From Chitinophagaceae bacterium (GTDB lineage: Bacteria > Bacteroidota > Bacteroidia > Chitinophagales > Chitinophagaceae): 64,000 bases of DNA. Positions 9,339-26,440 of the stretch are shown here, in pieces. A program made the position numbers and the translations under genes. Each line of letters begins with the position of its first letter. Position 1 is the stretch's first letter. Where the stretch lies: the NCBI GenBank assembly GCA_004297075.1, contig SCVK01000025.1:11139-75138 (forward strand), in the 5' to 3' direction. The notes under the pieces are model-generated. The model made no database searches. It was given only the letters and a program-made list of their open reading frames with translations, and was not told the DNA's origin.

Positions 9339-9803
9339 TCAGGTGATCAGGATCAGTTTCTGGGGAAGGGAGAAGTATTCCGCCTTGATCTTTTCGAGGT
9401 TTTCTTTTTTATTGAATAACTCGTAATATTCTTCTACGTCAATATTGCCGTTATCCCTGTTCACATATACAGGACCGGTAACGGAACTGGCAGGACCGTT
9501 CTCGAACAGAGCGGTACGAACGATCCCGTTTACCACGGCATCTTCGTTCAGCATACATTTATTTTTGCAGATCACGTTGCCATCGATCAGGCCTCCGATC
9601 ACGATATCATGACAAAGAATATCCCCGTTTACAGAGGCTTTTTTATCGATAATGACCTTATTGGTGCAGAAAATAATTCCCTTAAAATCGCCTTCGATGC
9701 GGATAGGAGAACTGGTTTTGATGATTCCGAAATAAACACCACCCGATACCACCTGCACGGCGGGGAGAATCTCGTCGGGTTTCTCAGTTTTTTTAAACAG
9801 CAT
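9339..9803 (-). CDS. Bactofilin (polymer-forming cytoskeletal protein)
   Basis: Repeating beta-solenoid pattern IRIEGDFKGII / ASVNGDILC / IVIGGLIDGNV / AVVNGIVRT. Confidence 0.8.
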   Translation of the reverse strand: MLFKKTEKPDEILPAVQVVSGGVYFGIIKTSSPIRIEGDFKGIIFCTNKVIIDKKASVNGDILCHDIVIGGLIDGNVICKNKCMLNEDAVVNGIVRTALFENGPASSVTGPVYVNRDNGNIDVEEYYELFNKKENLEKIKAEYFSLPQKLILIT

Positions 9804-9985
9804 AGAATGGGGGTTCTCTGGTTATTGGATGGGTAAGATAGCTAAAAAGAAAGATTCACGCCGAAAGAAAGGTGATGGAATCGTTATTTTTCCATCGTGC
9901 AGGCCGACTCATCACTTTTCGTCAAAAAATATTGACATTTCGTCATAAAATGTAATAATTTAGCTGCATACCAAACAAAAGACCC

Positions 9986-10588
9986 ATGAACAAATTCCGG
10001 GAGCAACTGCTGCATGATCCTAATTCCGGCTTCGGTACCCAAAGCGCGTCAGAAGATAAACAGCTGTTTATTACCAGTTCTACCAATATCTCCGGTATCC
10101 TTGATTCTGAAAATGAAATCACCCTGGACGGAAATTTCACCGGTGTCTTATACAGCAAAAAAACCATCAATATCACCCCTACCGGCATAATGAACGGGGT
10201 CATTATCTGTAACGACATTAAAGTGGAAGGCGAATTTGAAGGATCGATCTATGCACTGAAAGTAAACCTTTGCAAAGACTCGATCGTAAAAGGTAATATC
10301 CATTGTACCATCATCAATACCGAAATGAACCAGTATGTAGATGCCAATATCAAACTGCTGAGTCTGGAAACACCGGTATTTGAAGCCAGTTCTTCCGAAC
10401 TGTTCTCACAACTGAAAGAGACTTTCAATAAAAACAACAAAGACAATAACTACCTCGCCATTTTCCAGGAAAAACTGAATGCGATCAAATCGTCTACCAA
10501 GTTTTACCACCAGACCATTTACGTGGAGAGCAAACCCGAAACGCCCCCACCGGCCCAGGAAAACGATTACCTCGATTCCAATAACTAA
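9986..10588 (+). CDS. Bactofilin with C-terminal extension
   Basis: ITLDGNFTGVL / GIMNGVIIC / IKVEGEFEGSI / SIVKGNIHC repeats. Confidence 0.8.
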   Translation: MNKFREQLLHDPNSGFGTQSASEDKQLFITSSTNISGILDSENEITLDGNFTGVLYSKKTINITPTGIMNGVIICNDIKVEGEFEGSIYALKVNLCKDSIVKGNIHCTIINTEMNQYVDANIKLLSLETPVFEASSSELFSQLKETFNKNNKDNNYLAIFQEKLNAIKSSTKFYHQTIYVESKPETPPPAQENDYLDSNN

Positions 10589-10811: not shown

Positions 10812-10854
10812 TGATTCAAATCACAAACTGACAGTTTTATGACAGTTAGATTTG
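10812..10854 (+). promoter_or_regulatory. Crp/Fnr-type box plus -7 promoter element of the fasciclin gene
   Basis: tgattcaaatca (10812-10823), 23-bp spacer, tagatttg (10847-10854); same geometry as three nos-cluster promoters. Confidence 0.7.
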
Positions 10855-10883
10855 ATCTCAGTTAACTACTTAAAACTGCACAT

Positions 10884-11450
10884 ATGAAAAAGAAATTACT
10901 AGTTGTAGCCGGTTTTGCGCTGATAGTAGCCGCTGGTTGCGAAAGCAAAACAGAAACCGCCACAGAAACCGCCAGTGCCCCGGCAGAACAGGCCGCCGGC
11001 CAATCGGGCGTACAGGATGAAACTTCGCAGAAAAACGTGGTACAGGTGGCCATGGGCAGCCAAGACCATACTACCCTGGTAACCGCTGTTAAAGCAGCCG
11101 AACTGGTAGATGCGTTAAGCAATGCCGGTCCCTTTACCGTATTTGCCCCCACCAATGCCGCCTTCGACAAATTACCAGCCGGCACTGTAGAAGGATTACT
11201 GAAGCCCGAGAAAAAAGAAGCCCTGACCGATATTCTGCAATACCATGTATCAGTAGGTGTGTACAAAGCAGAATCGCTGCAGGACGGGCAGATCCTGGGC
11301 CAGGTAAATGGCGGCAATATCACAGTTAGTAAAAAAGACGGAAAAATTATGCTGAACGGAACTGCTACCATTGTAGCATCTGTACCGGCATCTAATGGCA
11401 TTATACATGTGATTGATGGTGTGCTCTTACCACCACCAGCCGGGAACTAA
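10884..11450 (+). CDS. Fasciclin (FAS1) domain lipoprotein
   Basis: Lipobox AAGC, GPFTVFAPTNAAF, ILQYHV and ASNGIIHVIDGVLLP motifs. Confidence 0.92.
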   Translation: MKKKLLVVAGFALIVAAGCESKTETATETASAPAEQAAGQSGVQDETSQKNVVQVAMGSQDHTTLVTAVKAAELVDALSNAGPFTVFAPTNAAFDKLPAGTVEGLLKPEKKEALTDILQYHVSVGVYKAESLQDGQILGQVNGGNITVSKKDGKIMLNGTATIVASVPASNGIIHVIDGVLLPPPAGN

Positions 11451-11477
11451 AATTTTTTACTTGTTTTTTTAAGCGAT

Positions 11478-11508
11478 AAGCATGGGTATTCTTGCCCGTG
11501 CTTTTTTT
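11478..11508 (+). terminator. Intrinsic terminator
   Basis: aagcatggg...cccgtgctt stem with T tail. Confidence 0.7.
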
Positions 11509-11551
11509 GTTTACAACTTTATGACCTATCTACGAACGCATGTTCACTAAA

Positions 11552-12007
11552 GTCAGGGCTGAAGCCCGGCAGCAAGTTACAGTTTATATAACCCCAGCCT
11601 GAAGACTGGGGTTAATGGATCGAATACACTTGATCTGTATTAGCTACCTTAGGAATCTGCGTCATTCCTCAATCGATATTTCCTTCATATCACAACCATT
11701 CATTTTATAACCTCAGGCTTGGGCATGGGAATTAAGACAGTTTATTGATCTCTTTACGGGCTTTAGCTCACCAGATCAGGGCTGAAGCCCGGTATATGAA
11801 TGAGGCTGTTGTCCCCAGCCTGAAGGCTGGGGTTAATGGGTAGAAGAAGTTTAAGTTAGTTGGGGGCCTGGGAATATGTATCATTTCCCTGCGGTCATTT
11901 CTTTCGCATCATAACCCAATCATTTTTATAACTCCATGCTTCAGCATGGGGTTAACAACTCATAACTGTTTGCGGGGCTTCAGCCCTGACCTTAGGGGCT
12001 ATGCTCA
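11552..12007. repeat. Two tandem REPIN/BIME-like composite palindromic units (223-bp period)
   Basis: Each unit: GGGCTGAAGCCC hairpin, CCCCAGCCTGAAGGCTGGGG hairpin, ~90-bp spacer, then inverted versions. GGGCTGAAGCCC occurs at 11556 and 11779. Confidence 0.8.
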
Positions 12008-12127
12008 ACCGTAGTAAAGAGAGGAAGCAATCTGCCGAAATCGATTTCGTAACTAAACGCTGTTGAAAAGAAACCGCTTTCTTCTTTTATATAACTTACC
12101 AGTTTCTATGAATGAATATATCCAACT

Positions 12128-13693
12128 ATGCACCATACAGTATCTACCATGAATAAAATACAGAAAGCCGGGTTTACAGGTTTATTGCTGTTACTGCTGT
12201 TTTCATTGCCCGTTATGTCACGTAACCTATCAAGCCATGCATTTTACAGTGTAAAAGACTATGGTGCCAAAGGGGATGGAAAAAGTCTTGATACCAAACA
12301 GATCAATGCAACCATTGATGCAGCGGCACTGGCGGGTGGAGGAACCGTTTATTTTCCGGCAGGAAACTATATAACGGGCTCAATACATCTCAAGAGTAAT
12401 ATTACGCTTTATATAGATCGCGCTGCGGTAATCATTGCTGCCTCGCGCGAGGATTCTACTGAATACGATAAAATTGAGCCGGTTAGCGAAAGCAAAACCA
12501 AATACACCGACCTAGGACATAACCGTTTTCACAACAGCCTTATCTGGGGCGAAAACCTGCACGACATAGGAATCGTAGGCGGCGGCATGATCTGGGGAAA
12601 AGGTTTATTGGGTGGCGAAGTGAAAGGCGGCAGTAATTATGCCAATAAATCCATAGCGTTGTTATTGTGCCGCAATGTTATTATTCAGAATATCATTATC
12701 AAACATGGAGGATGGTTTGGTATACTGGCCACAGGAGTGGATCATCTTACCATTGACAATGTAATCATGGATACCAACCGCGACGGTATGGATATTGACT
12801 GTTGCCAATATGTACATATTTCCAATTGCACCATCAATTCCCCATCCGACGATGCCATCTGCCTGAAAAGTTCTTTTGCCCTGGGTTATACAAGAGCCAC
12901 CAAAAATGTAACTATCACCAATTGTATTGTAAGCGGATATTTTGAAGGCAGTGTACTGGATGGTACTTATCGGAAAGACTATCGGAAAGCACCTACCGGC
13001 AGAATTAAAATGGGTACTGAATCCAATGGTGGTTTTCAGAATATAGCCATCTCCAATTGCGTATTTGACCATTGCAGAGGGTTGGCACTGGAATCGGTGG
13101 ACGGCGCTTTACTCGAAGATATCAGCGTGAACAATATCACCATGCGCGATGTTACCAATTCGCCCTTTTTTATCCGCCTCGGAGCCAGAATGCGGGGACC
13201 GGACAGTTTGGTCATTGGCCAATGCCGCCGGATAAATATCAGTAATATAAATGTATACAATGCTACAGACGACAGCTCAGCCTCGATCATCAGCGGAATA
13301 CCAGGGCATGATATTACAGATGTTGAAATGAGTAATATCCATATTTATTATAAAGGGGGAGGCACAAAAAATATGGATACCATTCAGGTACCTGAATTTG
13401 AAAAAAGATATCCTGATCCCAATAAGTTTGGTGTGATACCTGCCTATGGCTTTTTTATAAGACATGTTACCAATATGGTGATGCACGATATCACAATTGA
13501 ATTTCTGAAAGATGATTTCAGGCCACCCTTCATCCTCAGCCAGGTTACCGGCGCTACGTTCAGGCATGTAAAAGCACAGAAGGTGAAAGAAGCTGGTTTC
13601 TTTATACTGGACCAGGTAAAGGATTTTACACTTCAGGATTTTCCGGGACTGAAAGATGTAAAGCTGAAAGATGTGGTCCGTAAAACATTATAA
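12128..13693 (+). CDS. Glycoside hydrolase family 28 (polygalacturonase-like), exported
   Basis: Signal peptide, VKDYGAKGDG, NRDGMDID, DDAICLKS and RIKMGTES GH28 motifs. Confidence 0.88.
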   Translation: MHHTVSTMNKIQKAGFTGLLLLLLFSLPVMSRNLSSHAFYSVKDYGAKGDGKSLDTKQINATIDAAALAGGGTVYFPAGNYITGSIHLKSNITLYIDRAAVIIAASREDSTEYDKIEPVSESKTKYTDLGHNRFHNSLIWGENLHDIGIVGGGMIWGKGLLGGEVKGGSNYANKSIALLLCRNVIIQNIIIKHGGWFGILATGVDHLTIDNVIMDTNRDGMDIDCCQYVHISNCTINSPSDDAICLKSSFALGYTRATKNVTITNCIVSGYFEGSVLDGTYRKDYRKAPTGRIKMGTESNGGFQNIAISNCVFDHCRGLALESVDGALLEDISVNNITMRDVTNSPFFIRLGARMRGPDSLVIGQCRRINISNINVYNATDDSSASIISGIPGHDITDVEMSNIHIYYKGGGTKNMDTIQVPEFEKRYPDPNKFGVIPAYGFFIRHVTNMVMHDITIEFLKDDFRPPFILSQVTGATFRHVKAQKVKEAGFFILDQVKDFTLQDFPGLKDVKLKDVVRKTL

Positions 13694-13729
13694 ACTGAAA
13701 CAGCAGATAACTCAGGGGCAGCCCTACTT

Positions 13730-14548
13730 TTATAGCGCCGAAAGAAAATCAAGAAGATGTTTATTGAATAATTGAGGTTGTTCAAGATTGGATACATGAC
13801 CCGCATCCTCGATCACATGCAGAACTGATCCTTCTATGGCTGTATGCATGCTTTCTGATTGCGCCAGTGGTGTAACCGAATCCCTCCTGCCGCAAATAAT
13901 CAATGTAGGCAAGCGTATGCCACTTAGTGAAGAGCAGGTTTCTGCACGTTCGGCCAGCGCGGTTAGTCCCATGGAGATGATATGCGGAGAATTGGCAAAT
14001 ACTACCTTACGCAGACTTTCGACTAATTCCTTTTTATCACGGAAAGAATCCGCATGAAAGACTTTTTTGAGAAACCCTTCATTGAAATCAGTTACCCCAT
14101 TTACCGCTATAGCATCAATACTCTTATAGCGCTTAGTCTTTATTTCAGCCGTATCGGCTATACACTGTGTATCACATAAAATCAATGCTGCAAACCGATC
14201 AGGGAATCTTTGCACGGCATTCAGGGCTATAAAACCGCCCATAGACAAGCCGCAAACAATCGCTTTCTTAATATGCAAAGTGTTCATAAACGCAACCAGA
14301 TCTTCACCAAACAAATCCATACTCAGCGAAGACACTTCGTCAGTCGATTTTCCAAAACCTCTTATATCACAGGCAATTACCCGGTAATCAGTCTTTAACG
14401 ATGCCAGTTGCCCCTGCCACATCGATTTATCAAAAGGAAAACCATGCAGAAAGATAACCGGAACATTCCCTTCACCGAGATCATCATAAGATAATAAAAA
14501 GTGATTAACCGGTATTGTCAGATGGCAACCTTTACTTGCGTTTGGCAT
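13730..14548 (-). CDS. Alpha/beta hydrolase (3-oxoadipate enol-lactonase-like)
   Basis: HGFPFD, GLSMGG nucleophile elbow, AGHVSNLE. Start moved to 14548 to avoid overlap with the upstream gene. Confidence 0.85.
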   Translation of the reverse strand: MPNASKGCHLTIPVNHFLLSYDDLGEGNVPVIFLHGFPFDKSMWQGQLASLKTDYRVIACDIRGFGKSTDEVSSLSMDLFGEDLVAFMNTLHIKKAIVCGLSMGGFIALNAVQRFPDRFAALILCDTQCIADTAEIKTKRYKSIDAIAVNGVTDFNEGFLKKVFHADSFRDKKELVESLRKVVFANSPHIISMGLTALAERAETCSSLSGIRLPTLIICGRRDSVTPLAQSESMHTAIEGSVLHVIEDAGHVSNLEQPQLFNKHLLDFLSAL

Positions 14549-14558
14549 AGATAGTATT

Positions 14559-15230
14559 TTAAAACATTTCTTTGGTAATGAGATCTTCTTTAACACCTAT
14601 ATTGATTAACTGCTTTTCTATTTCCTTCATCATGGGCGGTGGACCACAGATATAAAAAGGCTGTGTAAAATCAGATACATGGGCTTTCAGGAATGCTTCT
14701 GTTATTCTTCCATACTGATAACCTTCTACCTCCTGATCGGATAAGATGTTCACAAATGCATCGCCGAGCAAGGTTTCGAATTCGTTTTCGAGAATAATAT
14801 CCGCCTGGGTTTTGTTGGCAAACAGTAACTGGTTTTTACCGATTTCACTTTTGACCTTCAGGTCTCTGAATATGGAAATAAAGGGCGTAACCCCTGCCCC
14901 ACCGGCTATAAAAACACCTTCGCCTTTATAGGTAATGGCCCCGAAAACGGCATGTGCCACTAACTCGTCATGTTGCTGCAAATGCAATAACTCGTTGGTT
15001 ACACCTTCTTTTTCCGGATAGGTTTTGATCGTAAACTCCAGAAAATCATCAGTTGGCAAACTCGTAAAAGTGAAAGGCCTTTCTGCTTCCAGCCAATCAG
15101 TTTTGTTAATAGCGATTTGCGTAGCCTGACCGGGCAGGAATTCAAATCCTTTGGGCTTGTCTGTAACTATTCGTAACACATCATGTGTGATATGATGGAT
15201 AGAGGCTATTTTGATAATATGATTTTCCAT
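14559..15230 (-). CDS. Ferredoxin/flavodoxin-NAD(P) reductase family protein
   Basis: RPFTFTS, IAGGAGVTPF and YICGPPPMM motifs. Confidence 0.87.
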   Translation of the reverse strand: MENHIIKIASIHHITHDVLRIVTDKPKGFEFLPGQATQIAINKTDWLEAERPFTFTSLPTDDFLEFTIKTYPEKEGVTNELLHLQQHDELVAHAVFGAITYKGEGVFIAGGAGVTPFISIFRDLKVKSEIGKNQLLFANKTQADIILENEFETLLGDAFVNILSDQEVEGYQYGRITEAFLKAHVSDFTQPFYICGPPPMMKEIEKQLINIGVKEDLITKEMF

Positions 15231-15367
15231 AGTAGTATTTACAACTGTTAAACCGGACATTGTAACACTTGCAAACCTACAGATGGATCTACCGGGTCAT
15301 CTTACACTAATCATCACAAGAATTACATGATTTACGCTTTACTCTTTCCTACTATTCAGTCCGGTTA

Positions 15368-15595
15368 TCGGGGCTGAAGCCCAGTATAGTGGATGCGATT
15401 ATTCCCCCAGCCTGAAGGCTGGGGTTAATGAAGAGGAAAAGATCAGCTGTATTAACTGATTTAAAAAAATCCATGTTTATCATCTCCCCCTATAATACAA
15501 GCGCTGAAACATTTATAACCCCATGCTTCAGCATGGGGGTTAACAACTCATGATTATTTGCGGGGCTTCAGCCCTGACCTTAGGGGCTATGCTCA
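15368..15595. repeat. Third copy of the REPIN-like composite unit
   Basis: Same four hairpins; terminal 39 bp (15557-15595) identical to 11969-12007. Confidence 0.82.
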
Positions 15596-15786
15596 GCAGC
15601 AGGTTACTGTTGGTTGGTGGCAACCAACTGCAGCCGGAGACCATCACTACGTTGTAGCAATTCGGGAATAGCCTGTGGTTTGGTTAAAAGGGATTCTGCC
15701 GGACAGTATCTCTAAACTTCGCCTTTTAGTTATACATTTAGTTTCAATGCCTCATAGGCAGCTGGCAATCATTAAAATATGCTCAG

Positions 15787-17436
15787 ATGAAATATGCGCT
15801 ATTCTGTTTCTTGCTCTTTACCTGCCCAACGTTGGGATGGGGACAAGCTAAGACTCCCGTTGAAAAGATTCTGATAAGCGCTAAAAAAAAGAAAACCGGT
15901 GTATCCACCAGCGAAAAAGGAGAATTACAGATAAGTGTATCTCCCGGGGATTTACAAAAATTCAAAAAAAGAGGTTGGGTTCGTTATAGTGACTTCGGCG
16001 CAAGGGGTGATGGAAAAACCGATGATATGGATGCTATAGCGGCAACACATGCAGTGGCCAATCAGTACGAACTGTCGGTAAAAGCGGATGAGGGTGCTAC
16101 GTATTATATTGGCGGGAAAGATCGTACTGCAGTAATCCAAACCAACACAGATTTCGGAAGGGCAGCCTTCATCATCGATGATACCGAAGTGCAAAACCGG
16201 AATGCATCCGTTTTTATTGTCAGCTCTGTATTACAACCCATTAAATTGGAAACGATCCCTGTCTTAAAGAGAAATCAGCAGCAAATCGGGCAATCACTGC
16301 CCCAGCCCTGCCTTATCACTGTTACCAATGCAAATGTAAAACGTTATATACGTTTCGGACTCAATCAAAACAACGGCGCTTCTCAAACAGATATTTTTGT
16401 GGCTGACAAAAACGGGAACCTGGACAGGAACGCCCCTATTATCTGGGACTTCGACCAGGTTACTGATATCACCGCTCTTCCCATAGATGAGAACACGCTA
16501 ACCATTACCGGTGGGCGCTTTACCACCATTGCCAATAAAGCGGAATCAAAGTACACGTATTATAACCGGAATATCGCCATCAGGCGTTCTCATGTAATTG
16601 TACAGGGGCTTGAGCATCGCGTTACCGGTGAAGGAGAGCATGGAGCGCCGTATGGCGGATTTATCAATATTGGTGATTGCGCCTATGTAACCGTTAAGAA
16701 CTCCGTGCTTACCGGTCACAAAACATATGTTACCATTGGGGCTGCGGGTAAACCCGTTTCGATGGGTAGTTATGATCTTTCGGTGAACCGTGCCCTTAAT
16801 GTATCGATCGTGAACTGCGGCCAGACAAATGATATCAATGACAAAACATACTGGGGAATCATGGGGTCTAACTACAGCAAAAATCTGTTGTATGATTCAT
16901 GTACTTTTTCCCGTTTCGATGCCCATATGGGTGTTGCCAACGCTACCATCCGCAACTCTACCCTCGGACACATGGGTTTGAATGCCATTGGCAGCGGGGT
17001 ACTGACCGTAGAGAATTCAACCATTAACGGCTACTCCTTCATTAATCTCCGCCCCGATTATGGCAGTACCTGGCAGGGAGAAATTTTTATCCGCAACTGC
17101 ATTTTTGTACCCGCCGACGGCAGGCCCATCAGTAGCAGCCTGATTGGCGGCGCTAATTCCGGTCAGCATGATTTTGGCTACACTTGTTATATGCCAGAAC
17201 GGATCACGATCGAGAACCTTCGTATCAACGATTCCAATCATCCGGGATCTTACCAGGGTCCCGCCATTTTTTCAAATATCAATCCGGAAATGAAAGATGC
17301 TTCTTACCGGGAACTATTTCCCGTTGTAAGACCCAAAGAGGTCATTCTCCGGAATATTACCACGGCCAGCGGAATGAAACTGAGGCTGAGCGATAACCCC
17401 ATTATGTTTAAGGATGTAAAAGTAGTGACCGATTAA
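15787..17436 (+). CDS. Exported right-handed beta-helix protein, probable polysaccharide-active enzyme
   Basis: Signal peptide, VRYSDFGARGDGKTDD (pectate_lyase_3-like start), repeated Asn/Ser/Thr-rich beta-helix rungs. Confidence 0.6.
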   Translation: MKYALFCFLLFTCPTLGWGQAKTPVEKILISAKKKKTGVSTSEKGELQISVSPGDLQKFKKRGWVRYSDFGARGDGKTDDMDAIAATHAVANQYELSVKADEGATYYIGGKDRTAVIQTNTDFGRAAFIIDDTEVQNRNASVFIVSSVLQPIKLETIPVLKRNQQQIGQSLPQPCLITVTNANVKRYIRFGLNQNNGASQTDIFVADKNGNLDRNAPIIWDFDQVTDITALPIDENTLTITGGRFTTIANKAESKYTYYNRNIAIRRSHVIVQGLEHRVTGEGEHGAPYGGFINIGDCAYVTVKNSVLTGHKTYVTIGAAGKPVSMGSYDLSVNRALNVSIVNCGQTNDINDKTYWGIMGSNYSKNLLYDSCTFSRFDAHMGVANATIRNSTLGHMGLNAIGSGVLTVENSTINGYSFINLRPDYGSTWQGEIFIRNCIFVPADGRPISSSLIGGANSGQHDFGYTCYMPERITIENLRINDSNHPGSYQGPAIFSNINPEMKDASYRELFPVVRPKEVILRNITTASGMKLRLSDNPIMFKDVKVVTD

Positions 17437-17481
17437 TAGAGGATATGATAACGACCATCCATGGTACAGGATTTGTACTGA

Positions 17482-17877
17482 TCATAATAGATGCTGTTCT
17501 ATTCGGTATTGCAGAATCTTCTCTTCCATCACTGCGGCAATACTGATGGCCCTTTGCCGGGCGAGGGAGGCTTTTTCTCCCTCAAAATTGTCATCCACCG
17601 TTTCCAGGAAAATATCTACCCAGCGGGAAAAATGTTTACTGTCGAGCGGGCGGATATGGTGCAGGTGTTTGTGCAGGTTCATCGGATTGCCGGAATAGGT
17701 ACCGGTGAAGAACAGGGCATTATCCCAGAAATCATACATGATAGGCAGGTGTTTCTCCCAATTCATTTTCACTATATTAGAGAAGATGAAGCCGATCACA
17801 TCATCTTCCGTTACTTTCCGGTAAAATTCATTTACCAGCAGTTCTATATCAGCACGGTTCTCAATATCTCTTTTCAT
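17482..17877 (-). CDS. Group III truncated haemoglobin
   Basis: IELLVNEFYRKV, IGFIF, WEKHLPIMYDFW, YSGNPMNLH, HFSRWVDIF. Confidence 0.88.
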   Translation of the reverse strand: MKRDIENRADIELLVNEFYRKVTEDDVIGFIFSNIVKMNWEKHLPIMYDFWDNALFFTGTYSGNPMNLHKHLHHIRPLDSKHFSRWVDIFLETVDDNFEGEKASLARQRAISIAAVMEEKILQYRIEQHLL

Positions 17878-17902
17878 AGAAAACAGGATTAAGCAGTTCA
17901 GA

Positions 17903-18670
17903 TCAAAGGTCTTTGCGGTTAAAATTTCGCACCGATAACCAGACGGGCAAACTTACCCAGGTTAACAGCACCAGCAGCGAGATCAGCATGCCGGTAGTGG
18001 TACCAAAAAAATCTTTAAAAATAGCACCGGTATACCCCATCATCGCAGATACATCCAGTTGAAGCAGAATCAGGATCCGGGACAGATCAATGGGATTTAA
18101 CGCACTCACTCCCACCATCGCTTTCTCCAGCGGATAATCGGCGAACTGGAACAGGAGAAATAATACAAGCCCATCAAACAGAATTGAAAAATACACCCAC
18201 AGCAGAATGGCCATTCCAATGCCTTTGGCTTTGTCGCGGGTTTTTACCGCGGCCAGCATGGCAATGGCCACAAAAATGATACTCAACAGAATGCCCACCC
18301 CGATCATCAGAAACCCAACCATATTGGCCTCATACAACAACACGGGAATACCCACTCCAATAAAAAAGGCGATGGACAAAGAGCCCGCCAAACCAATAAA
18401 AAGGCTGATCCAGATGCTTTTCCGTTTCAGTGGCTGGCTTACCAGCAGTTCAATAAACTCTGCACTGTTATACACGTAGATGGTAGAGAATATGATACTG
18501 ATCAACGGCACTATGAGCAGGATAATATTCAACAGGCTCAGTAATCCTTTACTGCTGTTGTCTTCCAGACTAAACACGCTGAACGATGCCACCAATAAAA
18601 AAAGCAGGTACACCAGCACAATCCGGTTCCGCAGTATATCAGCCATTACATATTTGATGATCTTTTTCAT
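17903..18670 (-). CDS. nosY: NosY, ABC permease for CuZ maturation
   Basis: Hydrophobic, EFIELLVSQP and LNPIDLSR motifs; follows nosF. Confidence 0.85.
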   Translation of the reverse strand: MKKIIKYVMADILRNRIVLVYLLFLLVASFSVFSLEDNSSKGLLSLLNIILLIVPLISIIFSTIYVYNSAEFIELLVSQPLKRKSIWISLFIGLAGSLSIAFFIGVGIPVLLYEANMVGFLMIGVGILLSIIFVAIAMLAAVKTRDKAKGIGMAILLWVYFSILFDGLVLFLLFQFADYPLEKAMVGVSALNPIDLSRILILLQLDVSAMMGYTGAIFKDFFGTTTGMLISLLVLLTWVSLPVWLSVRNFNRKDL

Positions 18671-19380
18671 ATTGTAGATGCATTTAACATGACATGCGCA
18701 ATGGCTTTGGACAATTTTTCCTGACCGGTATCTTCGCGCAGCGCTTCAATGGTTTTGTGAAAGCGGAGTTCTCCATCCTGCATATAAATGACCTGTGTTA
18801 CCAGGTCGTCCAGCTCGCTCAGCACATGCGAGGTTACGAGCACCAGTTTGCCTTTCTGTTTTTCGCGGATAATTTTTTCTTTCAGTATCTCAGAGGAAAC
18901 AGGATCCAGTCCGGCCGTAGGTTCATCTAAGATCAATACCTGCGGATCAAACAGAAATGCCAGGCAGGCACTTACTTTCTGGCGGGTACCACCCGAGAGG
19001 GTGCGCATCCGTTTCTGTTTCAGTTCCTCCAGTCCAAAAGCGGCAACCAGCTCTTCATCAATAGCACTTTTGTGCTGGCGGATATCTTTCATCATATTCA
19101 ACACATCCACGATCCGCATATTATCTGGGTAGCGACCGATCTGAGGCATATAACCGATCTCGCTCCTGTACTGCCAGTGATGCAGGATGTTATTGCCATT
19201 GAAAGTGATAAAGCCACTATCAGGCACTACCATACCCAGTATACTTTTGATCAGGGTGGTTTTACCGCTACCATTGGGGCCGATCAATGCAATACATTCG
19301 CCTTTGTTACAGGTAACCGATACATTCTGCAATGCCTGCAGTTTGCCGAATTTCTTAGAAACATTATTGGCTAGGATCAT
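18667..19380 (-). CDS. nosF: NosF, ABC ATPase
   Basis: GPNGSGKT, LSGGTRQK, ILDEPTAGLD; lies between nosD and nosY. Confidence 0.88.
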   Translation of the reverse strand: MILANNVSKKFGKLQALQNVSVTCNKGECIALIGPNGSGKTTLIKSILGMVVPDSGFITFNGNNILHHWQYRSEIGYMPQIGRYPDNMRIVDVLNMMKDIRQHKSAIDEELVAAFGLEELKQKRMRTLSGGTRQKVSACLAFLFDPQVLILDEPTAGLDPVSSEILKEKIIREKQKGKLVLVTSHVLSELDDLVTQVIYMQDGELRFHKTIEALREDTGQEKLSKAIAHVMLNASTI

Positions 19381-19406
19381 ATCAGGTTCTTTAATCAGTT
19401 GGTTGA

Positions 19407-20639
19407 TCAGAATAATCTTTTCATCTGTGGGCGGCTATCCTTCAATCCCTCGGGTGTTAAACTGGGTAATACTTTTTCGGTTTTGTCCAGCAGCGTAGTA
19501 ATAAAACTCCGGAACAGCAACATAGCCGGTGGATTCTTCTCCACGATCATTGAATACATACTTACAGGACGATAGGGCACATCGCCCACTTTATCTTTGT
19601 TCAGATCATACCCGTCGTATTTATCCCAGTAATTACTGTTGAAAGTGTTCAGCACCAATGAGCCATTGGTACCCACATCAAATGTGTTACTAATGAAATT
19701 ATTTTTGGTTACTTCTATATCCATGCAGCTGGCCTGGATCTTCATACCCCAGCCATTGTTCTGAAACTGGTTCTTCTGCATATGAATACGGCTGGCACCT
19801 TCCATATAAATACCGCTGGTGTTTTTAACAAAAGTGTTCCCGTCTATATAGCTGTCTGATATCTCTTTTAACAACAAACCATAAGCGGCATCACCCCAGT
19901 TTTCTTCAAACACATTACTGTACATTTTAACGCCATGCGAATACATAACTGCCACACCTGCTCCATTGTGTGTGAAGTGATTGAAGATATAAGCGTCGTT
20001 ATGCGAGAACATAAAGTGTAAACCATAACGAATATTGCGGAAAGAATTATTTCGCCAGATCACCGAGTTGGTTACAAATTCAAAATAGATCCCATCCCTC
20101 TGGCCGCTTATCGTATTGCCGATGATCTGCAAGCTGTCGCTTTTCCAGCAATGAATGCCGTTACCACTCTGCTGCTCTTCCTGTGCATACGCAGTGATGC
20201 GGTTATTCTCGATAATGCAATGCTTCCCATATTGTACGTAAATGCCAAAGAAGGTATCCTCCAGAATATTATTCCTGATCACCACATCGCGGCTATCATA
20301 GATCTTAATGCCCCCCATATCTTCAATACTGGATACGCCGGAATGTATAATGCGGAATCCCTCTACCACTACCCCATCTGTTTTAACGGAGATTACTTCG
20401 TATTTTTTTTCACCGTCCAGTACCGGGTATCCGGTTCCCTTCAGTACAATTTTTTTGGCGATAACGAGGTTTTTTTCGCGGTACAGGCCCGCAAACACCA
20501 GCACCGTATCGCCTGTGCTGGCCGCTTTAACAGCAGCCGTAACGGTTGCATATTCCTTGTTTTTGCCAACCTGCCGGGTAGTTGCCTGTAGGTTGGTTAC
20601 AAGAACACACAAAGAGAATATAAAGAGAAGGTATTTCAT
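19407..20639 (-). CDS. nosD: NosD periplasmic maturation protein
   Basis: Beta-helix with GNGIHCW, RDGIYFEF, RYGLHFMFSH and NYWDKYDGYDLNKDKVGDVPY. Confidence 0.92.
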   Translation of the reverse strand: MKYLLFIFSLCVLVTNLQATTRQVGKNKEYATVTAAVKAASTGDTVLVFAGLYREKNLVIAKKIVLKGTGYPVLDGEKKYEVISVKTDGVVVEGFRIIHSGVSSIEDMGGIKIYDSRDVVIRNNILEDTFFGIYVQYGKHCIIENNRITAYAQEEQQSGNGIHCWKSDSLQIIGNTISGQRDGIYFEFVTNSVIWRNNSFRNIRYGLHFMFSHNDAYIFNHFTHNGAGVAVMYSHGVKMYSNVFEENWGDAAYGLLLKEISDSYIDGNTFVKNTSGIYMEGASRIHMQKNQFQNNGWGMKIQASCMDIEVTKNNFISNTFDVGTNGSLVLNTFNSNYWDKYDGYDLNKDKVGDVPYRPVSMYSMIVEKNPPAMLLFRSFITTLLDKTEKVLPSLTPEGLKDSRPQMKRLF

Positions 20640-21652
20640 TTATTGAGTTGAGCCCAGTTAATCCGGGCAGCTGTATATTGGATCTCCTTTTTTTTCATAC
20701 TGTCTTCCACACGGAAGGCAGCCAGGTTTCCATTCATGGGACTCTGGAACAGTTCGCTTTGCAGGAAAAAAGCTTCTGTAGCATTTACGAGTTGATGATC
20801 GCCGGTAAAATCGGTAAAATATACGGCTGCAATCTCTTTTTTATCTACTGCATCTGCATGCAGGAAGGATAAGATACAATGTGCATCATCAAACTTATAG
20901 GTCTTTCCTTTCCGGGTTACCAGTTCGGCTCCAAAACGGTTATCGGTAATCGTCATTTTGCAGGAATAGCAATTGTCTTTCCCGTAACGTATCGCTTCGG
21001 GTGCGGTACTGCAACCAGTGAGGCTTGTGATAGAAACGGCCAGTATTAATATGCCCGCAACACCGGTAAAGTTCCGCGAAAGTTTAGCGCGGCGTGTTTC
21101 CAGAATTACCAGCAACAGCAGGATGGCTCCTACTCCTACAAAGATCCATCCGCCAATATCGGGAATGGAATAGGCGCCAAAATTCAATAACTGTTTAAAC
21201 CCGATCAACGGAGGCTGGTAAGCCATACCGGGAATACGGATGGCTGCATCAGGATTAAGGTCGTGACCATATTGGTACTCCCATCTCCAGAAATCGATCA
21301 TCGCAATAACACCAAATAAAATGAATAATGTCAGTAACAGGTTCAGCCATTTTCTTTTACCTACAACTGCTACGATGATGGACAGTAAACTGAAAAATAC
21401 AATGATGCCGGGCAGGATCCTGAACTCGGGGAAATCGTCTGCATGCAGTGTTTTCATCCCGATATAATGGTTCAGTCCGTTAATAATATCCACGTTACCC
21501 GCCAGTTTATTGGCATAGATCTGTAACATCAATCCTTCCGGGTATTGCGGTGCGTCAAGGTCTATCCGCCACATGGGTACAAACAATACAACCAGCAAAG
21601 CCAGGCCGCACAGGATCAACAAAGAGCGGGAGGATGTTTTTAACTTGTTCAT
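20636..21652 (-). CDS. nosL: NosB-like membrane domain fused to the NosL copper chaperone
   Basis: N-terminal APQYPEGL / INGLNHYIGM / YGHDLNP membrane domain; C-terminal CYSCKMTI, KFDDAHC and SPMNG NosL motifs. Confidence 0.85.
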   Translation of the reverse strand: MNKLKTSSRSLLILCGLALLVVLFVPMWRIDLDAPQYPEGLMLQIYANKLAGNVDIINGLNHYIGMKTLHADDFPEFRILPGIIVFFSLLSIIVAVVGKRKWLNLLLTLFILFGVIAMIDFWRWEYQYGHDLNPDAAIRIPGMAYQPPLIGFKQLLNFGAYSIPDIGGWIFVGVGAILLLLVILETRRAKLSRNFTGVAGILILAVSITSLTGCSTAPEAIRYGKDNCYSCKMTITDNRFGAELVTRKGKTYKFDDAHCILSFLHADAVDKKEIAAVYFTDFTGDHQLVNATEAFFLQSELFQSPMNGNLAAFRVEDSMKKKEIQYTAARINWAQLNK

Positions 21653-21740
21653 GGCAATGATTTGTGAGATTCAACTATCACATAAAAAATCAGCACGGAA
21701 ACAGCATCAGCAGTTTTCCGCAATGGGTTTCCGGGCTGGC

Positions 21741-21777
21741 AAAATGGCTGTAACAGGTAATTCACCTGTTACAGCCA
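21741..21777 (-). terminator. Intra-operon hairpin after nosZ
   Basis: 14-bp perfect stem tggctgtaacaggt/acctgttacagcca followed by a short T run on the minus strand. Confidence 0.7.
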
Positions 21778-21785
21778 GGTAAAAG

Positions 21786-23786
21786 CTATTTCTTAGGAGC
21801 CGGAACGGGTTCTGCTTTAGGCTGGTTGGTTCCCAAACTAAACGTCAGCGGCACATTACTTCCTGCAGGCGATACCCTTACATAGCCCTGCATTTCCTGG
21901 TGTAAAGCACTACAGAAATCAGTGCAATAGATCGGGAACATACCTGGTTTTTCAGGGGTCCAGCGCAGTGTCTGTGTTTCTCCCGGCATAATCAGCAGTT
22001 CCGCATTGGAAGCACCTTTCACTGCAAAACCATGTGGCACATCCCAGTCCTGCTCCAGATTGGTTACATGGAAGAGTACTTCATCTCCTACACGGATACC
22101 TTCAATATTATCAGGAGAGAAGTGTGAACGGATGGCTGTCATGTACACATGTACTTTGTTGCCTTCACGCACCACTTTGGACTCACCTTCCCCTTTGGAT
22201 ACATAAGGATGTTTGTTCTCATCGATCTTGAAGAATTTAACGGAGTTTTTCCGGATAAGATCTGCCGGCGCAGATTGCGCATAGTGCGGTTCACCAATGG
22301 TTGGGAAATCCAGGATTAGCTGCATCTTATCACCACTGATATCATAGAGCTGTGCACTTTGCGCCAGTTCTGGTCCGGTAGGCAGGTAACGGTCTTTGGT
22401 GATCTTGTTATACGCAACAAGGTATTTGGCCGATGGTTTTTTGGTATCGCCACCGGGGATTGACAGGTGACCTACAGAATAATAGGTAGGCACACGATCC
22501 AGCACTTTCAGGTCCTTGATATTCCATTTCACCACTTCGCTCGATACGAAGAAAGAAGTGTAGGCATTACCCTTACCATCAAACTCGGTATGCAAAGGTC
22601 CGAGACCAGGTTTTTTCACTTCTCCATATAAAGCTGATTCGTATTTGATCACGGGGATACCATCGTATTCGCCGGCATAATCTTTGGCAGCAATGGCTTT
22701 GATCATTTTATCGAAACTGAATACAGGGATCAACGCGGCCAGTTTACCACTACCTACGATATATTCACCGGTAGGATCTACGTCGCAGCCGTGTGGAGAT
22801 TTAGGACAGGGGATCATGTAACAGATATCTTTCAGCTCTTTCGCATCCAGCACGATCACTTCTGTTTTGATGGTAGAAGTGGCAGAATGCGTTTTTTCAT
22901 CCCAGCGGTTGCTGGCATATTTAACAGACTGTTTTCTGCCTTTACCGGCTTTGAGGTACTCTTCTGCTTTTTTCCAGTTAACTGCCATGATAAAATCCTT
23001 ATCGCGCTGCGAAGCATTTACTTCCAGCAGGGTATTGGCTTGTTCGGTATTATAACAGCTGAAGAAGAACCAGCCATGTGATTTGCCTTTACCGGCATGG
23101 CTCAGGTCGAAGTTCACACCCGGACACTGGATCTGGAAAGCGATATCCATTTTACCATCTTCCTTGGCCACGCTGATAAAACTCAGGGTACCTTTAAAAT
23201 TCTGTTTGTAGGTATTGATCGGGATATCACCGCTTACATTATCCGGTGGTACACTAAAACGGGTACCGGCCACAACGTATTCGGTATTTTCTGTAATGAA
23301 GGGAGAAGAGTGGTTACCGGCACTATTGGGTAACTCTATGATCTCTGCCGTACGAAAGGTAGTCAGATCGATACGAGCCACGCGGGGGGTATTATTGGCG
23401 TTACCGAATACCCAGCGACCATCGATCTCTCCGTTGGTCTGAGACAGTTCGGGGTGGTGAAGATCATCCCAGGGAACAAAACCGTGAGAAGTGTTCAGCA
23501 TAGGTTTGGTTTCTTCGCTGTAGCCCCATCCTTTTTCCGGATCTACCGAAAAAGCCGGAATTACGCGTAACAAGCGGCCGCTGGGTAATCCGTAAACAGC
23601 CATTTGTCCGCTGAAACCACCGGAAACAAAATTATAATACTCATCATATTTGCCTGGTGCCACATACGCTTTGGCAGCGGCATCGGCACTAACGGCATTT
23701 CCGGCGTTCTTGGGTTTGCAGGAAAGCATCCCCAGCAATAATGCGAAGGACGCCATGGCGATCGCATTATAATTTGTCTTTTTCAT
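21786..23786 (-). CDS. nosZ: Sec-dependent (clade II) nitrous-oxide reductase, lipoprotein
   Basis: Lipobox MLSC with no twin-arginine motif; CuZ His motifs DDLHH, GNH, PHG, PLH, EPH; CuA motif CTDFCSALHQEM. Start taken as ATG 23786. Confidence 0.97.
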   Translation of the reverse strand: MKKTNYNAIAMASFALLLGMLSCKPKNAGNAVSADAAAKAYVAPGKYDEYYNFVSGGFSGQMAVYGLPSGRLLRVIPAFSVDPEKGWGYSEETKPMLNTSHGFVPWDDLHHPELSQTNGEIDGRWVFGNANNTPRVARIDLTTFRTAEIIELPNSAGNHSSPFITENTEYVVAGTRFSVPPDNVSGDIPINTYKQNFKGTLSFISVAKEDGKMDIAFQIQCPGVNFDLSHAGKGKSHGWFFFSCYNTEQANTLLEVNASQRDKDFIMAVNWKKAEEYLKAGKGRKQSVKYASNRWDEKTHSATSTIKTEVIVLDAKELKDICYMIPCPKSPHGCDVDPTGEYIVGSGKLAALIPVFSFDKMIKAIAAKDYAGEYDGIPVIKYESALYGEVKKPGLGPLHTEFDGKGNAYTSFFVSSEVVKWNIKDLKVLDRVPTYYSVGHLSIPGGDTKKPSAKYLVAYNKITKDRYLPTGPELAQSAQLYDISGDKMQLILDFPTIGEPHYAQSAPADLIRKNSVKFFKIDENKHPYVSKGEGESKVVREGNKVHVYMTAIRSHFSPDNIEGIRVGDEVLFHVTNLEQDWDVPHGFAVKGASNAELLIMPGETQTLRWTPEKPGMFPIYCTDFCSALHQEMQGYVRVSPAGSNVPLTFSLGTNQPKAEPVPAPKK

Positions 23787-23844
23787 GCTGATATGTTTAA
23801 AGGTTTGTTGATACACAACAGTGATTGTAACAGGTAATGATGCA

Positions 23845-24321
23845 TTATTTCACGCCATCATTCTTACGCATAAACTCATACAGGCTGCGCGCATCATCAT
23901 CACTCAGGTTCTGATTAGGCATACGCACCAGACAAATCTCCAGCTGCGCCTGTGCTTTGGGATCCTTGGTCAGCATCTCATCGGTATTGGTGATGAAGTT
24001 CATGATCCAGGGAGCGGTAAAACGGGCAGTTACCCCTTTCCAACCAGGTCCTACCAGTTTCTCTTCAGTTAACTTATGACAGCTGCTGCACTTTACGCCA
24101 TACACTTTGTTCCCTTTCTCGGCCAGGGTCGCATCCAGTGTTGCAGGAATTTCTACGGTTTTGAATTTGCCTTCTCCCCTTTCAGGATCATAGGAAGGAT
24201 TGGTAGAGGCTTCTTTCTTTTCTTCACCCGCTGCCACGTTATCCGTAGTAGTTGTTCCATTCTGGTTTCCGCATGCGTACATAGCCGCTACAACAATAAT
24301 GGCTGTAATCGTTTTTTTCAT
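23845..24321 (-). CDS. Monohaem cytochrome c lipoprotein (NosC-like)
   Basis: Lipobox YAC, CSSCH haem motif, distal Met in RMPNQ; immediately upstream of nosZ. Confidence 0.9.
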   Translation of the reverse strand: MKKTITAIIVVAAMYACGNQNGTTTTDNVAAGEEKKEASTNPSYDPERGEGKFKTVEIPATLDATLAEKGNKVYGVKCSSCHKLTEEKLVGPGWKGVTARFTAPWIMNFITNTDEMLTKDPKAQAQLEICLVRMPNQNLSDDDARSLYEFMRKNDGVK

Positions 24322-24354
24322 GGTCGTAGTTTTTTGATTGAATAATTGCATATA

Positions 24355-24397
24355 CAAGATTACCCATGCTTTCACCGGCATTTTATGCGTTGAATCA
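24355..24397 (-). promoter_or_regulatory. nos operon promoter with Crp/Fnr-type box
   Basis: Minus strand: tgattcaacgca (24397-24386), 23-bp spacer, taatcttg (24362-24355). Confidence 0.65.
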
Positions 24398-24473
24398 TAC
24401 CGGATAAAAAAAAGGGAAGTGGGGAACAGTTATACTGACAATCAACCTGTTAGAAATCAATCTTGCAAAAACC

Positions 24474-24538
24474 TGATTTAAATCATATATTCAGATGATA
24501 CTGGTCATCAACAAAGGTATTGGGGAAGGATAGTTTTG
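24474..24538 (+). promoter_or_regulatory. Crp/Fnr gene promoter with two boxes
   Basis: tgatttaaatca (24474-24485) and tgatactggtca (24496-24507), then 23-bp spacer and tagttttg (24531-24538). Confidence 0.7.
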
Positions 24539-24563
24539 GCAGCAACTACATAAACCGCCACTT

Positions 24564-25160
24564 ATGATGATAGACATTGATCTTTTGCTTGCCTGCGGGG
24601 CTGCTTATAAAAAAGTATCCGCTGGCGAAATCATCTTTCAGGAAGGAGCTGCCTGCCATTTTTATTATCAACTGGTCAGTGGCATTGTTCGGTGGGTAAA
24701 CGTAGATGAGGAAGGCAATGAATATATTCAGACCCTGATAGACCCCGGCGAGTGTTTCGGAGAAATCCCCTTATTTGATGAAGGCCCTTATGCCGCCACT
24801 GCTATTGCCGATGAAGATGCTGTGCTGATCCGCCTGCATCGCAGTTCGTTTATACAATTATTGAAAGATAGTCCGGAGATCCATTTTTCTTTTACCCGCT
24901 TACTCGCCAAAAGAGTTCGTTTTAAATTCCTGCTCATTAAATCACTGGCACTATATGCACCGGAAGCCAGAATTGCTGCGCTGATCAACTATCTGAAAGC
25001 AGAGAACAAGAATTTCTGTCCCAAATGCAATCAACTGAAACTGACCCGCCAGCAGATCGCCGACATGACCGGTTTACGTGTGGAAACAGTGATCCGCGCC
25101 ATGCGTCATATGCACGACAGAGGCGAACTGGTGATCGAAAAAGGAAAAGTGTTCTGCTGA
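24564..25160 (+). CDS. Crp/Fnr family transcriptional regulator
   Basis: cNMP-binding fold (GECFGEIPLF) and HTH LTRQQIADMTGLRVETVIR. Confidence 0.93.
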   Translation: MMIDIDLLLACGAAYKKVSAGEIIFQEGAACHFYYQLVSGIVRWVNVDEEGNEYIQTLIDPGECFGEIPLFDEGPYAATAIADEDAVLIRLHRSSFIQLLKDSPEIHFSFTRLLAKRVRFKFLLIKSLALYAPEARIAALINYLKAENKNFCPKCNQLKLTRQQIADMTGLRVETVIRAMRHMHDRGELVIEKGKVFC

Positions 25161-25163
25161 ATA

Positions 25164-25206
25164 TGATTACAATCATACCCACATAGCCTTGTTTGCAGTT
25201 CCTTTG
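25164..25206 (+). promoter_or_regulatory. Crp/Fnr-type box plus -7 element of the membrane protein gene
   Basis: tgattacaatca (25164-25175), 23-bp spacer, ttcctttg (25199-25206). Confidence 0.65.
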
Positions 25207-25222
25207 CCGGTAAACGACAGGT

Positions 25223-26440
25223 ATGCGTTCTTCTTTATCCAGGTGGTTACAGGTTTCGCTGATCAATTTGTTACTGGTTGCTCTTATCGGTGTAATACTG
25301 CGTTATAAGATCGCCTTCTCCTTACCTTTTATCGATCAGAAACACCTGCTGCATGGCCACTCGCATTTTGCCTTTGCCGGCTGGATCACCCATACACTGA
25401 TGGTATTCCTCGTAGAGTACCTATCCCGCGAAAGCGGCGTAGACATGTTTCGCAAATACCGTGGTTTAGTATGGGCCAACCTGCTTACCGCTTATGGTAT
25501 GCTGTTCTGGTTCCCGATACAGGGGTATGGTGGGTGGAGTATCAGCTTCTCCACTTTATCCATTATTGTCTCTTATATCTTCACCATTGCTTACTGGAAA
25601 GACCTGAACCGTCTCAGAAAAAACAGGATCAGTCACCAGTGGTTCAAAGCCGCACTGCTGTTAAATATCCTTTCTTCACTGGGAGCTTTCGCACTTGCCT
25701 TTATGATGGCCACCCATACCGTTCACCAGAACTGGTACCTGGCCGCCGTATATTTTTTCCTCCATTTTCAGTACAATGGCTGGTTCTTTTTTGCGGTCAT
25801 GGGTTTGCTGACAGCCCGCATGGAACATCTGACAGCACTCAGGCTAACCTTACTAACTGTTTTCCGCTTATTTGCTTTTGCCAGTATACCCGCCTATTTC
25901 TTATCGGTCCTTTGGCTACCAATGCCAGTAGCGGTGTATGTGCTGGTGATCTTTTCTGCATTGGCACAGGCACGGGGTTGGTTTTTGTTTCTCCGGCTTT
26001 ATAATACTTACAAAACCGTTTTGACGGATATCTTCCCCAAAAATATCAGTTGGTTATTGATACTGGCTGCATTGGCCACCACTATCAAGATCCTGCTGCA
26101 GCTGGGATCTACCATTCCATCACTGAGCCAGCTGGCATTCGGTTTCCGGCCAATTGTGATCGGTTACCTGCACCTGGTACTGCTGGGTATGTTCAGTATT
26201 TTCCTGATAGCTTATATCGTTTCTTACAAATGGTCTACTGCAGGCAAAACATTACTCATCGGCATCAAATGGTTTGCAGGAGGTGTTATCATTAACGAAT
26301 GTGTTTTGATGATACAAGGGATGGCGGCACTTGGCTACCACACCCTTCCTTTGATCAATGAATCCCTATTATTAACAGCAGTTATCCTTTTCACCGGTAT
26401 CCTCCTGATGCTGCTCGGTTTCAGTAAAGTAACATCCTGA
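25223..26440 (+). CDS. Polytopic membrane protein with intramembrane His motifs, function unknown
   Basis: About 12 hydrophobic segments; HGHSHFAFAGW, FLHFQYNGW and GYLHLVLLG motifs. Confidence 0.75.
   Translation: MRSSLSRWLQVSLINLLLVALIGVILRYKIAFSLPFIDQKHLLHGHSHFAFAGWITHTLMVFLVEYLSRESGVDMFRKYRGLVWANLLTAYGMLFWFPIQGYGGWSISFSTLSIIVSYIFTIAYWKDLNRLRKNRISHQWFKAALLLNILSSLGAFALAFMMATHTVHQNWYLAAVYFFLHFQYNGWFFFAVMGLLTARMEHLTALRLTLLTVFRLFAFASIPAYFLSVLWLPMPVAVYVLVIFSALAQARGWFLFLRLYNTYKTVLTDIFPKNISWLLILAALATTIKILLQLGSTIPSLSQLAFGFRPIVIGYLHLVLLGMFSIFLIAYIVSYKWSTAGKTLLIGIKWFAGGVIINECVLMIQGMAALGYHTLPLINESLLLTAVILFTGILLMLLGFSKVTS

Follow-up and report, generated by a model that had tools for sequence, protein, structure and literature searches.

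In Pseudomonas aeruginosa, as outlined in PMC8139620, the FNR-type regulator ANR controls the gene of DNR, which activates the genes for nitrous oxide reductase (nos). Organisms with clade II nosZ are regarded as important sinks of nitrous oxide (N2O) whose regulation has been little studied, according to the introduction of PMC11539149. Clade II clusters of the Flavobacterium azooxidireducens and Dyadobacter type have the order nosZ, fused nosB-L, nosD, nosF, nosY, and the main text of the paper that describes them (PMC9697520) never mentions fasciclin, FNR or Crp and gives no description of a regulator, a box or accessory genes. Here we analyzed a 64,000-nucleotide stretch of DNA (the window) from a Chitinophagaceae bacterium (assembly GCA_004297075.1, contig SCVK01000025.1, positions 11,139 to 75,138), which carries on its minus strand a complete clade II nos operon with this same order, comprising nosC, nosZ, nosB-L, nosD, nosF, nosY and a globin gene. 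Divergent from the operon are a Crp/Fnr-family regulator gene and then the gene of a 405-residue membrane protein, and the gene of a fasciclin (FAS1) lipoprotein is found 6 kb past the operon's end.

We propose, with a probability of roughly 60%, that the four promoters of these genes share one activator geometry, are written in two box dialects (A and B) and are wired as a two-tier cascade. A general low-oxygen Crp/Fnr sensor would activate the local regulator gene; the local regulator, of a subfamily that we name by its recognition helix, RVETVIR, would bind dialect A as a class II activator and switch on the nos operon, the fasciclin gene and the membrane-protein gene. The scheme resembles ANR-to-DNR in its general FNR-type sensor above a second Crp/Fnr protein that activates nos, and in its related palindromic boxes. 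It differs in the phylum, the clade II nosZ, the sigma-A -7 promoters, the RVETVIR subfamily and the absence of the outer TT..AA of the FNR consensus (TTGAT-N4-ATCAA). Class II Crp/FNR activation, two-tier cascades and FAS1 domains are known kinds of part. In the open literature we found neither the regulator family, nor the box, nor a fasciclin-nos link; subscription reviews and supplements may show fasciclin in cluster figures. Open-literature texts that mention fasciclin together with nosZ or nitrous oxide reductase draw no link between them.

Promoter geometry and box dialects

A preliminary description of the window, made from its letters, had proposed four TGA-N6-TCA-type boxes, each 23 bp upstream of a TAnnTTTG-like element. 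Four pairs with an identical 12 + 23 + 8 geometry are present at those genes (positions counted from the first letter of the window): at the fasciclin gene (10812-10854, plus strand; box 10812..10823, -7 element TAGATTTG at 10847..10854), the nos operon (24397-24355, minus strand; box 24397-24386, -7 element 24362-24355), the regulator gene (24496-24538, plus strand; box 24496-24507, -7 element 24531-24538) and the membrane-protein gene (25164-25206, plus strand; box 25164-25175, -7 element 25199-25206). Their places and spacing had been given correctly. As corrections to the patterns, the nosC box is TGA-N6-GCA, and two of the -7 elements have one mismatch. Both kinds of departure are conserved variants at the aligned sites of relatives. 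A fifth box, TGATTTAAATCA at 24474..24485, had been overlooked; it lies 22 bp upstream of the regulator's box. The same 22-bp tandem occurs elsewhere in the window's source genome (G000; 4.07 Mb, 82.75% complete), at ccoS (C267:2796-2818) and at a gene truncated where its contig stops (C470:220-242).

The count of matches in the window was set aside as evidence, four being seen against 1.97 expected and 14 of 100 shuffled sequences reaching four, which is not significant. All four window pairs use one and the same gap out of seven allowed. When we scanned the genome with a box-gap-TAnnTTTG model, a gap of 23 bp gave a peak of 10 sites combining TGA-N6-TCA with a strict TAnnTTTG, compared with 0-3 sites at each of the other 19 gaps (12 altogether; Poisson p 1.6e-9). 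No spacing peak appeared genome-wide with the loose -7 pattern TnnnnTTG. Across 80 related nos loci, 23 bp was also the commonest gap upstream of the orthologues of nosC (27 of 76 regions, with a further 11 at 24 bp), fasciclin (20/47), the regulator (17/58) and the membrane gene (14/56). It was found upstream of none of the nosL (77 regions), nosD (71), nosF (69), nosY (66) or globin (46) genes, and upstream of nosZ there were seven matches at a gap of 19 and seven at 23. With these spacing peaks in the genome and among orthologues, the activator geometry that had been suggested for the four promoters is supported, as is a reader of the Crp/Fnr family.

TAnnTTTG is placed at -12 to -5 relative to the start in PMC9723704. 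Starts are then predicted at 10859 (fasciclin), 24350 (nos operon), 24543 (regulator) and 25211 (membrane gene), and the boxes would span -47 to -36, centred at about -41.5. Relative to these predicted starts, the box position fits the geometry of a class II Crp/FNR-activated promoter; in E. coli, class II CRP/FNR sites are centred at -41.5. The likeness to class II promoters is in the box centre, and the differences here are the Bacteroidota -7 element, the two dialects and the conserved second box 22 bp upstream. The fifth box would stand at about -63.5 of the regulator promoter and is a candidate site of feedback or co-activation. In Nitrosophilus labii, the Crp/Fnr sites reported in PMC11539149 begin 48-49 bases before the starts.

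RNA contigs were available for related strains from seven metatranscriptome runs under six study codes; such contigs reveal neither strand nor start. On the nos side, contigs in seven runs end at 24301-24337, short of the predicted start at 24350, and one run of unrecorded kind spans the nos promoter region. In four runs, contigs over the fasciclin gene begin at 10877-10889 (predicted start 10859), and regulator contigs begin at 24511, 24533 and 24561 (predicted start 24543). Two contigs bridge the regulator and membrane genes. The insert genes between fasciclin and globin are poorly covered by RNA contigs, which we do not count as evidence. The contig ends are a weak hint in agreement with the nos and fasciclin promoter positions.

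Boxes were called in the aligned upstream regions of nosC (67/76), fasciclin (34/47), the membrane gene (30/56) and, with a looser box, the regulator (37/58), and they fell into two dialects with a common core, TGAY-N4-RTCA. The sites of nosC-nosZ, fasciclin and the membrane gene carry dialect A, TTATGAY-T-nn-A-RTCATAA (flanks TA..TAA, inner T-nn-A). Dialect B, with mostly R-nn-T as its inner bases, is seen at the cbb3 oxidase, Usp, OmpW and pdxH genes and in the regulator's proximal box. A dialect A matrix was built on 129 sites of relatives, the closest NosZ relative (98%, labelled Sediminibacterium sp.) being left out; in the source genome it recovered only four sites paired with a -7 element. 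The three best-scoring ones belong to the membrane gene, fasciclin and nosC; the regulator's own box was not recovered. By the six signature bases of dialect A, the nosC and fasciclin boxes score 6, the membrane-gene box 5, the regulator box 2 and eleven other genome sites 0-3. The 23-bp geometry occurs in this genome also at ccoS-ccoNO, a Usp gene, an OmpW gene, pdxH and several unassigned genes. The regulon extends beyond the window, and the earlier equation of the regulon with the four promoters is not supported, given these sites and a second, FNR-like gene beside the cbb3 cluster.

Local regulator and the proposed cascade

The local regulator (24564..25160, plus strand) matches Pfam PF00027 and PF13545. 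It lacks an N-terminal cysteine cluster, its alignment (A1) shows no conserved Cys, and NCBIfam NF008365 scores 48 bits against a cut-off of 228. As to a DNR- or NnrR-type nitric oxide (NO) sensor, no NCBIfam family exceeded its cut-off for this protein, and DNR was only a mid-rank structural relative. The RVETVIR rows form one clade (Shimodaira-Hasegawa-like approximate likelihood ratio test 99) in a quickly computed tree of 73 Crp proteins from Bacteroidota with no DNR row, which had flagged long-branch joins and was used only to show this grouping. The second Crp/Fnr gene of the genome (G000:C267:5871-6572) adjoins the cbb3 cluster and encodes a cysteine-bearing, FNR-like protein. Its Cys7, Cys10, Cys56 and Cys109 recur in 23-24 of 27 homologues, and the NCBIfam family that it matches best is Fnr, at 89.9 bits and under the 228 cut-off. 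The recognition helices of the two proteins are unlike, RVETVIR in the local regulator and ATESAIR in the FNR-like protein. The FNR-like protein was found in 29 of the 50 genomes searched, and those without it carry fusions of a receiver domain with Crp beside sensor kinases. Such fusions, of about 352 residues and next to sensor kinase genes, are seen in L118, L119, L121, L122, L124, L125 and L137 and in G146, G130, G122, G113, G071 and G054. In the proposed cascade, dialect B would be read by the FNR-like protein or, in genomes that lack it, by a receiver-Crp fusion.

The local regulator had been described as the activator of all four promoters. It likely drives three of them (nosC, fasciclin and the membrane gene); its own -41.5 box is of dialect B, at 2/6, and averages 2.1/6 in 24 divergent regulator promoters, a score that, with the failure of the dialect A matrix to find this box and the presence of an FNR-like gene and dialect B targets in the genome, makes it improbable that the RVETVIR regulator alone activates all four promoters, its own included. 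Such sole control would account for the one geometry at four promoters, for the A-like box that the regulator often has when it is the first gene of an operon shared with the membrane gene, and for the A-like box 22 bp upstream of the regulator promoter in relatives, where the second box stands exactly 22 bp upstream of the proximal one in 16 of the 24 divergent promoters with a called site. In the two-tier cascade, this upstream box would give feedback.

We compared dialect and regulator across an order-wide sample of 110 genomes, each at least 95% complete. The RVETVIR subfamily is present in 23 of them (its matches are well set apart, none falling between E 1e-52 and 1e-39), nosZ in 62, and both together in 19. 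In the 60 of the 62 nos loci that formed the test set, separate from the loci used to train the matrix, the nos operon box has a mean signature of 5.2/6 with RVETVIR (17 sites, 19 genomes) and 2.2/6 without (27 sites, 41 genomes). The difference has the same sign in all six families with both states, and none of 20,000 within-family permutations was as large. The strict dialect A pattern occurs in 14 of 23 genomes with RVETVIR and 13 of 87 without (40 matches, against 7 for a reversed control); the corresponding counts for the dialect B pattern are 12/23 and 31/87. Dialect A boxes are kept in two genomes that have no match to the FNR-like protein (G016 and G027). Within nine genomes, mostly of one genus, that have the FNR-like gene divergent from ccoI, the inner bases of the ccoI box are A..T in eight and those of the nosC box T..A in nine.

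These comparisons bear on a scheme in which one global low-oxygen regulator, FNR-like or a receiver-Crp fusion, reads all boxes, dialect A being due only to greater site strength or common descent, and the local regulator being a passenger target. The core common to both dialects would be expected of it, as would the 27 of 41 RVETVIR-less nos loci that keep the same geometry, a few of them with A-like boxes, and the receiver-Crp genes found within about 10 kb of nosZ in several RVETVIR-less genomes. Against this stand the switch of signature with RVETVIR inside six of six families, the difference between nos and cco boxes inside single genomes and the unlike recognition helices, and we rate global control as, if anything, slightly less probable than sole control by the local regulator.

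Fasciclin lipoprotein and membrane protein

The fasciclin gene (10884..11450, plus strand) encodes a 188-residue lipoprotein with an invariant Cys19 and an N-terminal GQ..S motif (alignment A3). It is a FAS1 domain protein by its Pfam match (PF02469, 121.9 bits, above the cut-off) and its modelled fold (predicted local distance difference test, pLDDT, 82). Bacterial single-domain FAS1 proteins (PDB 1w7d; CupS, 2mxa/6tjv; MPT70, 1nyo) have the same fold and motifs, and CupS is a FAS1 protein that serves as a subunit of a bioenergetic complex. The window's fasciclin differs from these in being a lipoprotein with its own conserved GQ..S motif and in its strict co-occurrence with nosZ in the order. 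In 49 of the 80 related nos loci and 33 of the 60 order-wide loci, the fasciclin gene is found no further than 10 kb from nosZ, either after the globin gene, between nosZ and nosB-L, or before nosZ. The preliminary description had taken the window's copy for a displaced member of the nos set, and this linkage, with the fasciclin directly after the globin in one related locus (L019), bears it out.

A profile of the nos-linked fasciclins finds the protein in 53 of 62 nosZ genomes of the order and in none of 48 others at E <=1e-65, a cut chosen afterwards at the gap before 3e-57, with 30 candidates scored per genome. Leaving out the 31 genomes that contributed to the profile, the counts are 22 of 31 nosZ genomes and 0 of 48 others. 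Outside the order, one nosZ-negative genome reaches 1.1e-58 with the profile. By this distribution, the fasciclin is nos-specific, though not universal. Of 20 copies lying outside the fetched nos stretch, 11 have a box at a gap of 23-24, namely 7/8 with RVETVIR and 4/12 without. Two nosZ-negative genomes (G094:C12 and G115:C11; loci L159 and L161) keep the RVETVIR gene and nosC with a dialect A box, and by profile they lack the fasciclin.

From the co-occurrence and shared promoter we infer that the fasciclin may be a functional Nos accessory protein, perhaps a lineage-restricted periplasmic helper (scaffold or chaperone) of the lipoprotein NosZ. The circuit might also be real and the fasciclin a general adhesion or envelope protein of low-oxygen life that travels with nos only as a hitchhiker, given that FAS1 domains of solved relatives are known adhesion modules, that most nosZ genomes outside the order lack it and that the source genome has a fasciclin paralogue. 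We consider this unlikely, less so than either of the two rival wirings, since the nos type is absent from all 48 nosZ-negative genomes, including the two that keep nosC and the regulator, often lies within the nos operon, and accompanies nosZ even when far from it on the same contig (G054, G058, G123 and G065). In a Flavobacteriaceae symbiont, nosZ ranks 11th and a FAS1 gene is in the top 20 transcripts, which the authors of PMC10199937 read as adhesion.

The membrane protein (25223..26440, plus strand; 405 residues) has, by its AlphaFold model (pLDDT 91.7), the 12-helix subunit I fold of the haem-copper oxidase superfamily, matching cbb3 CcoN with Z 35.1 and NorB with Z 34.4 (root-mean-square deviation about 3.2 over about 400 residues); its best non-oxidase match has Z 11.6. 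In catalytic haem-copper oxidases and NO reductases, two haems and CuB or FeB are liganded by six conserved His residues. Here, four are near-invariant, on three pseudo-symmetric helices: among 66 homologues, His46, His181 and His317 are found in 66 and His48 in 65, with His44 in 54. No conserved middle-helix His pair, and hence no full catalytic ligand set, was found in these homologues. With only His46, His48, His181 and His317 near-invariant, the protein is likely a haem- or metal-binding relative rather than a complete oxidase. Sequence searches gave no PDB match and no Pfam COX1 match; every Pfam family that matched did so in at most 3 of the 66 members, and the best 120 of 6091 homologues are unnamed or hypothetical. 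NnrS is an NO-stress haem-copper membrane protein; in a sequence-to-profile search, NnrS (PF05940) matched no member of the membrane protein's alignment (A2) at E 0.1 and nothing in the source genome.

The signal of the cascade would probably be low oxygen plus NO. The ligands of the membrane protein, the globin and the frequent RIC (iron-sulfur repair) neighbours point weakly to NO as the second signal. RIC near nos does not separate the regulator types, its motif being in 21 of 64 loci with RVETVIR and 24 of 76 without. Elsewhere in the source genome, a small cytochrome c gene is followed by that of a 481-residue divergent haem-copper oxidase subunit (G000:C67, L257:2373-4152; COX1 106 bits, no NCBIfam family near its cut-off), a possible unusual NO reductase. 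Another cluster (G000:C417, L258:1876-8027) holds an Rrf2 regulator, a second CcoN-like protein (720 residues, with an N-terminal extension), a FixO-like cytochrome, a globin paralogue and RIC, and is likely an NO-stress cluster.

A more specific version of the cascade, which we put forward tentatively, would make the RVETVIR protein a dedicated Bacteroidota nos activator that reads an 18-bp box below an FNR-type sensor and switches on both the fasciclin, as a NosZ scaffold or chaperone, and a stripped-down oxidase-fold protein that handles NO, haem or copper.

Counter-evidence and locus layout

Several observations weigh against the two-tier cascade. The RVETVIR family is missing from 43 of the 62 nosZ genomes, and five RVETVIR-less genomes have A-like nos boxes (G054 and G060 score 5; G071, G151 and G160 score 4). 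Conversely, two RVETVIR-bearing genomes have B-like inner bases (G057 and G085), and G148 is also an exception. In loci whose regulator gene comes first in an operon with the membrane gene, the regulator box is closer to dialect A (mean 3.9/6, 14 sites); the wiring varies, and self-activation is plausible there, judging by the box. At ccoS and C470, the distal boxes mix features of both dialects. Of the three regulator RNA contigs, two reach 10 and 32 nt further upstream than the predicted start. The fasciclin is absent from 9 of the 62 nosZ genomes in the order, and beyond the order it is found in only 7 of 34 (E <=1e-59), six of these copies adjoining nosZ. The genomes are kin, hence the p-values are too strong, and with the source genome 82.75% complete, another regulator may be missing from the assembly.

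The nos operon itself has the composition of a clade II cluster, with a Sec-type NosZ together with nosD, nosF, nosY, nosL and nosB. All its genes are on the minus strand. The first, nosC (23845..24321, likely start 24321), encodes a c-type cytochrome and is found in 79 of the 80 related nos loci. It is followed by nosZ (21786..23786; TIGR04246 938.9 bits, cut-off 625), a predicted lipoprotein with Cys23 invariant in 68 rows, and by the nosB-L fusion, nosD, nosF and nosY (17903..21652; TIGR04247 above cut-off, and PF05573), the nosB-L sequence containing the NosB motif LNHYIGM given in PMC9697520. The last gene, truncated-globin-like (17482..17877; weak match to Pfam PF01152), is found in 46 of the 80 loci. 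No nirK above cut-off was found in the source genome, at its 82.75% completeness.

The fasciclin and globin genes are separated by 11538..17436, which lies outside the regulon and holds repeat clusters and four genes: a GH28 rhamnogalacturonidase, an alpha/beta hydrolase, an FAD/NAD oxidoreductase and a 549-residue protein. These had been called carbohydrate genes; only GH28 is a recognised carbohydrate enzyme. None of the four is found in the 80 related nos loci. The window's flanking bactofilin genes recur in L019, where globin, fasciclin and bactofilins are contiguous and the insert is absent; therefore the window's four genes and palindromic repeats are a later insert. The fasciclin would have kept its own promoter when this unrelated insert parted it from the operon. 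The palindromic short-repeat clusters, at 11538-12014 and 15367-15602, flank three of the insert genes and include a 67-nt pair that is 91% alike. In related strains, contigs connect 11584 or 11796 with 15404 and omit 3.6-3.8 kb, which may be a deletion between repeats or a repeat-driven misplacement. The secreted-looking 549-residue protein (15787-17436) has no Pfam or NCBIfam match and shares an N-terminal short repeat with the GH28 gene. On its other side, the fasciclin adjoins two divergent bactofilin genes (9339-10588), a pair that follows the fasciclin in L019 only.

The regulator family, its box, the box position and the proposed hierarchy are now each open to testing, and the fasciclin becomes a candidate Nos helper in a major greenhouse-gas sink. 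From the dialect of the box in its sequence, one could tell in advance if a strain's nos operon would respond to oxygen only or require a second signal as well, and FAS1 expression that is interpreted as adhesion in bacteria of this kind may be part of N2O respiration.

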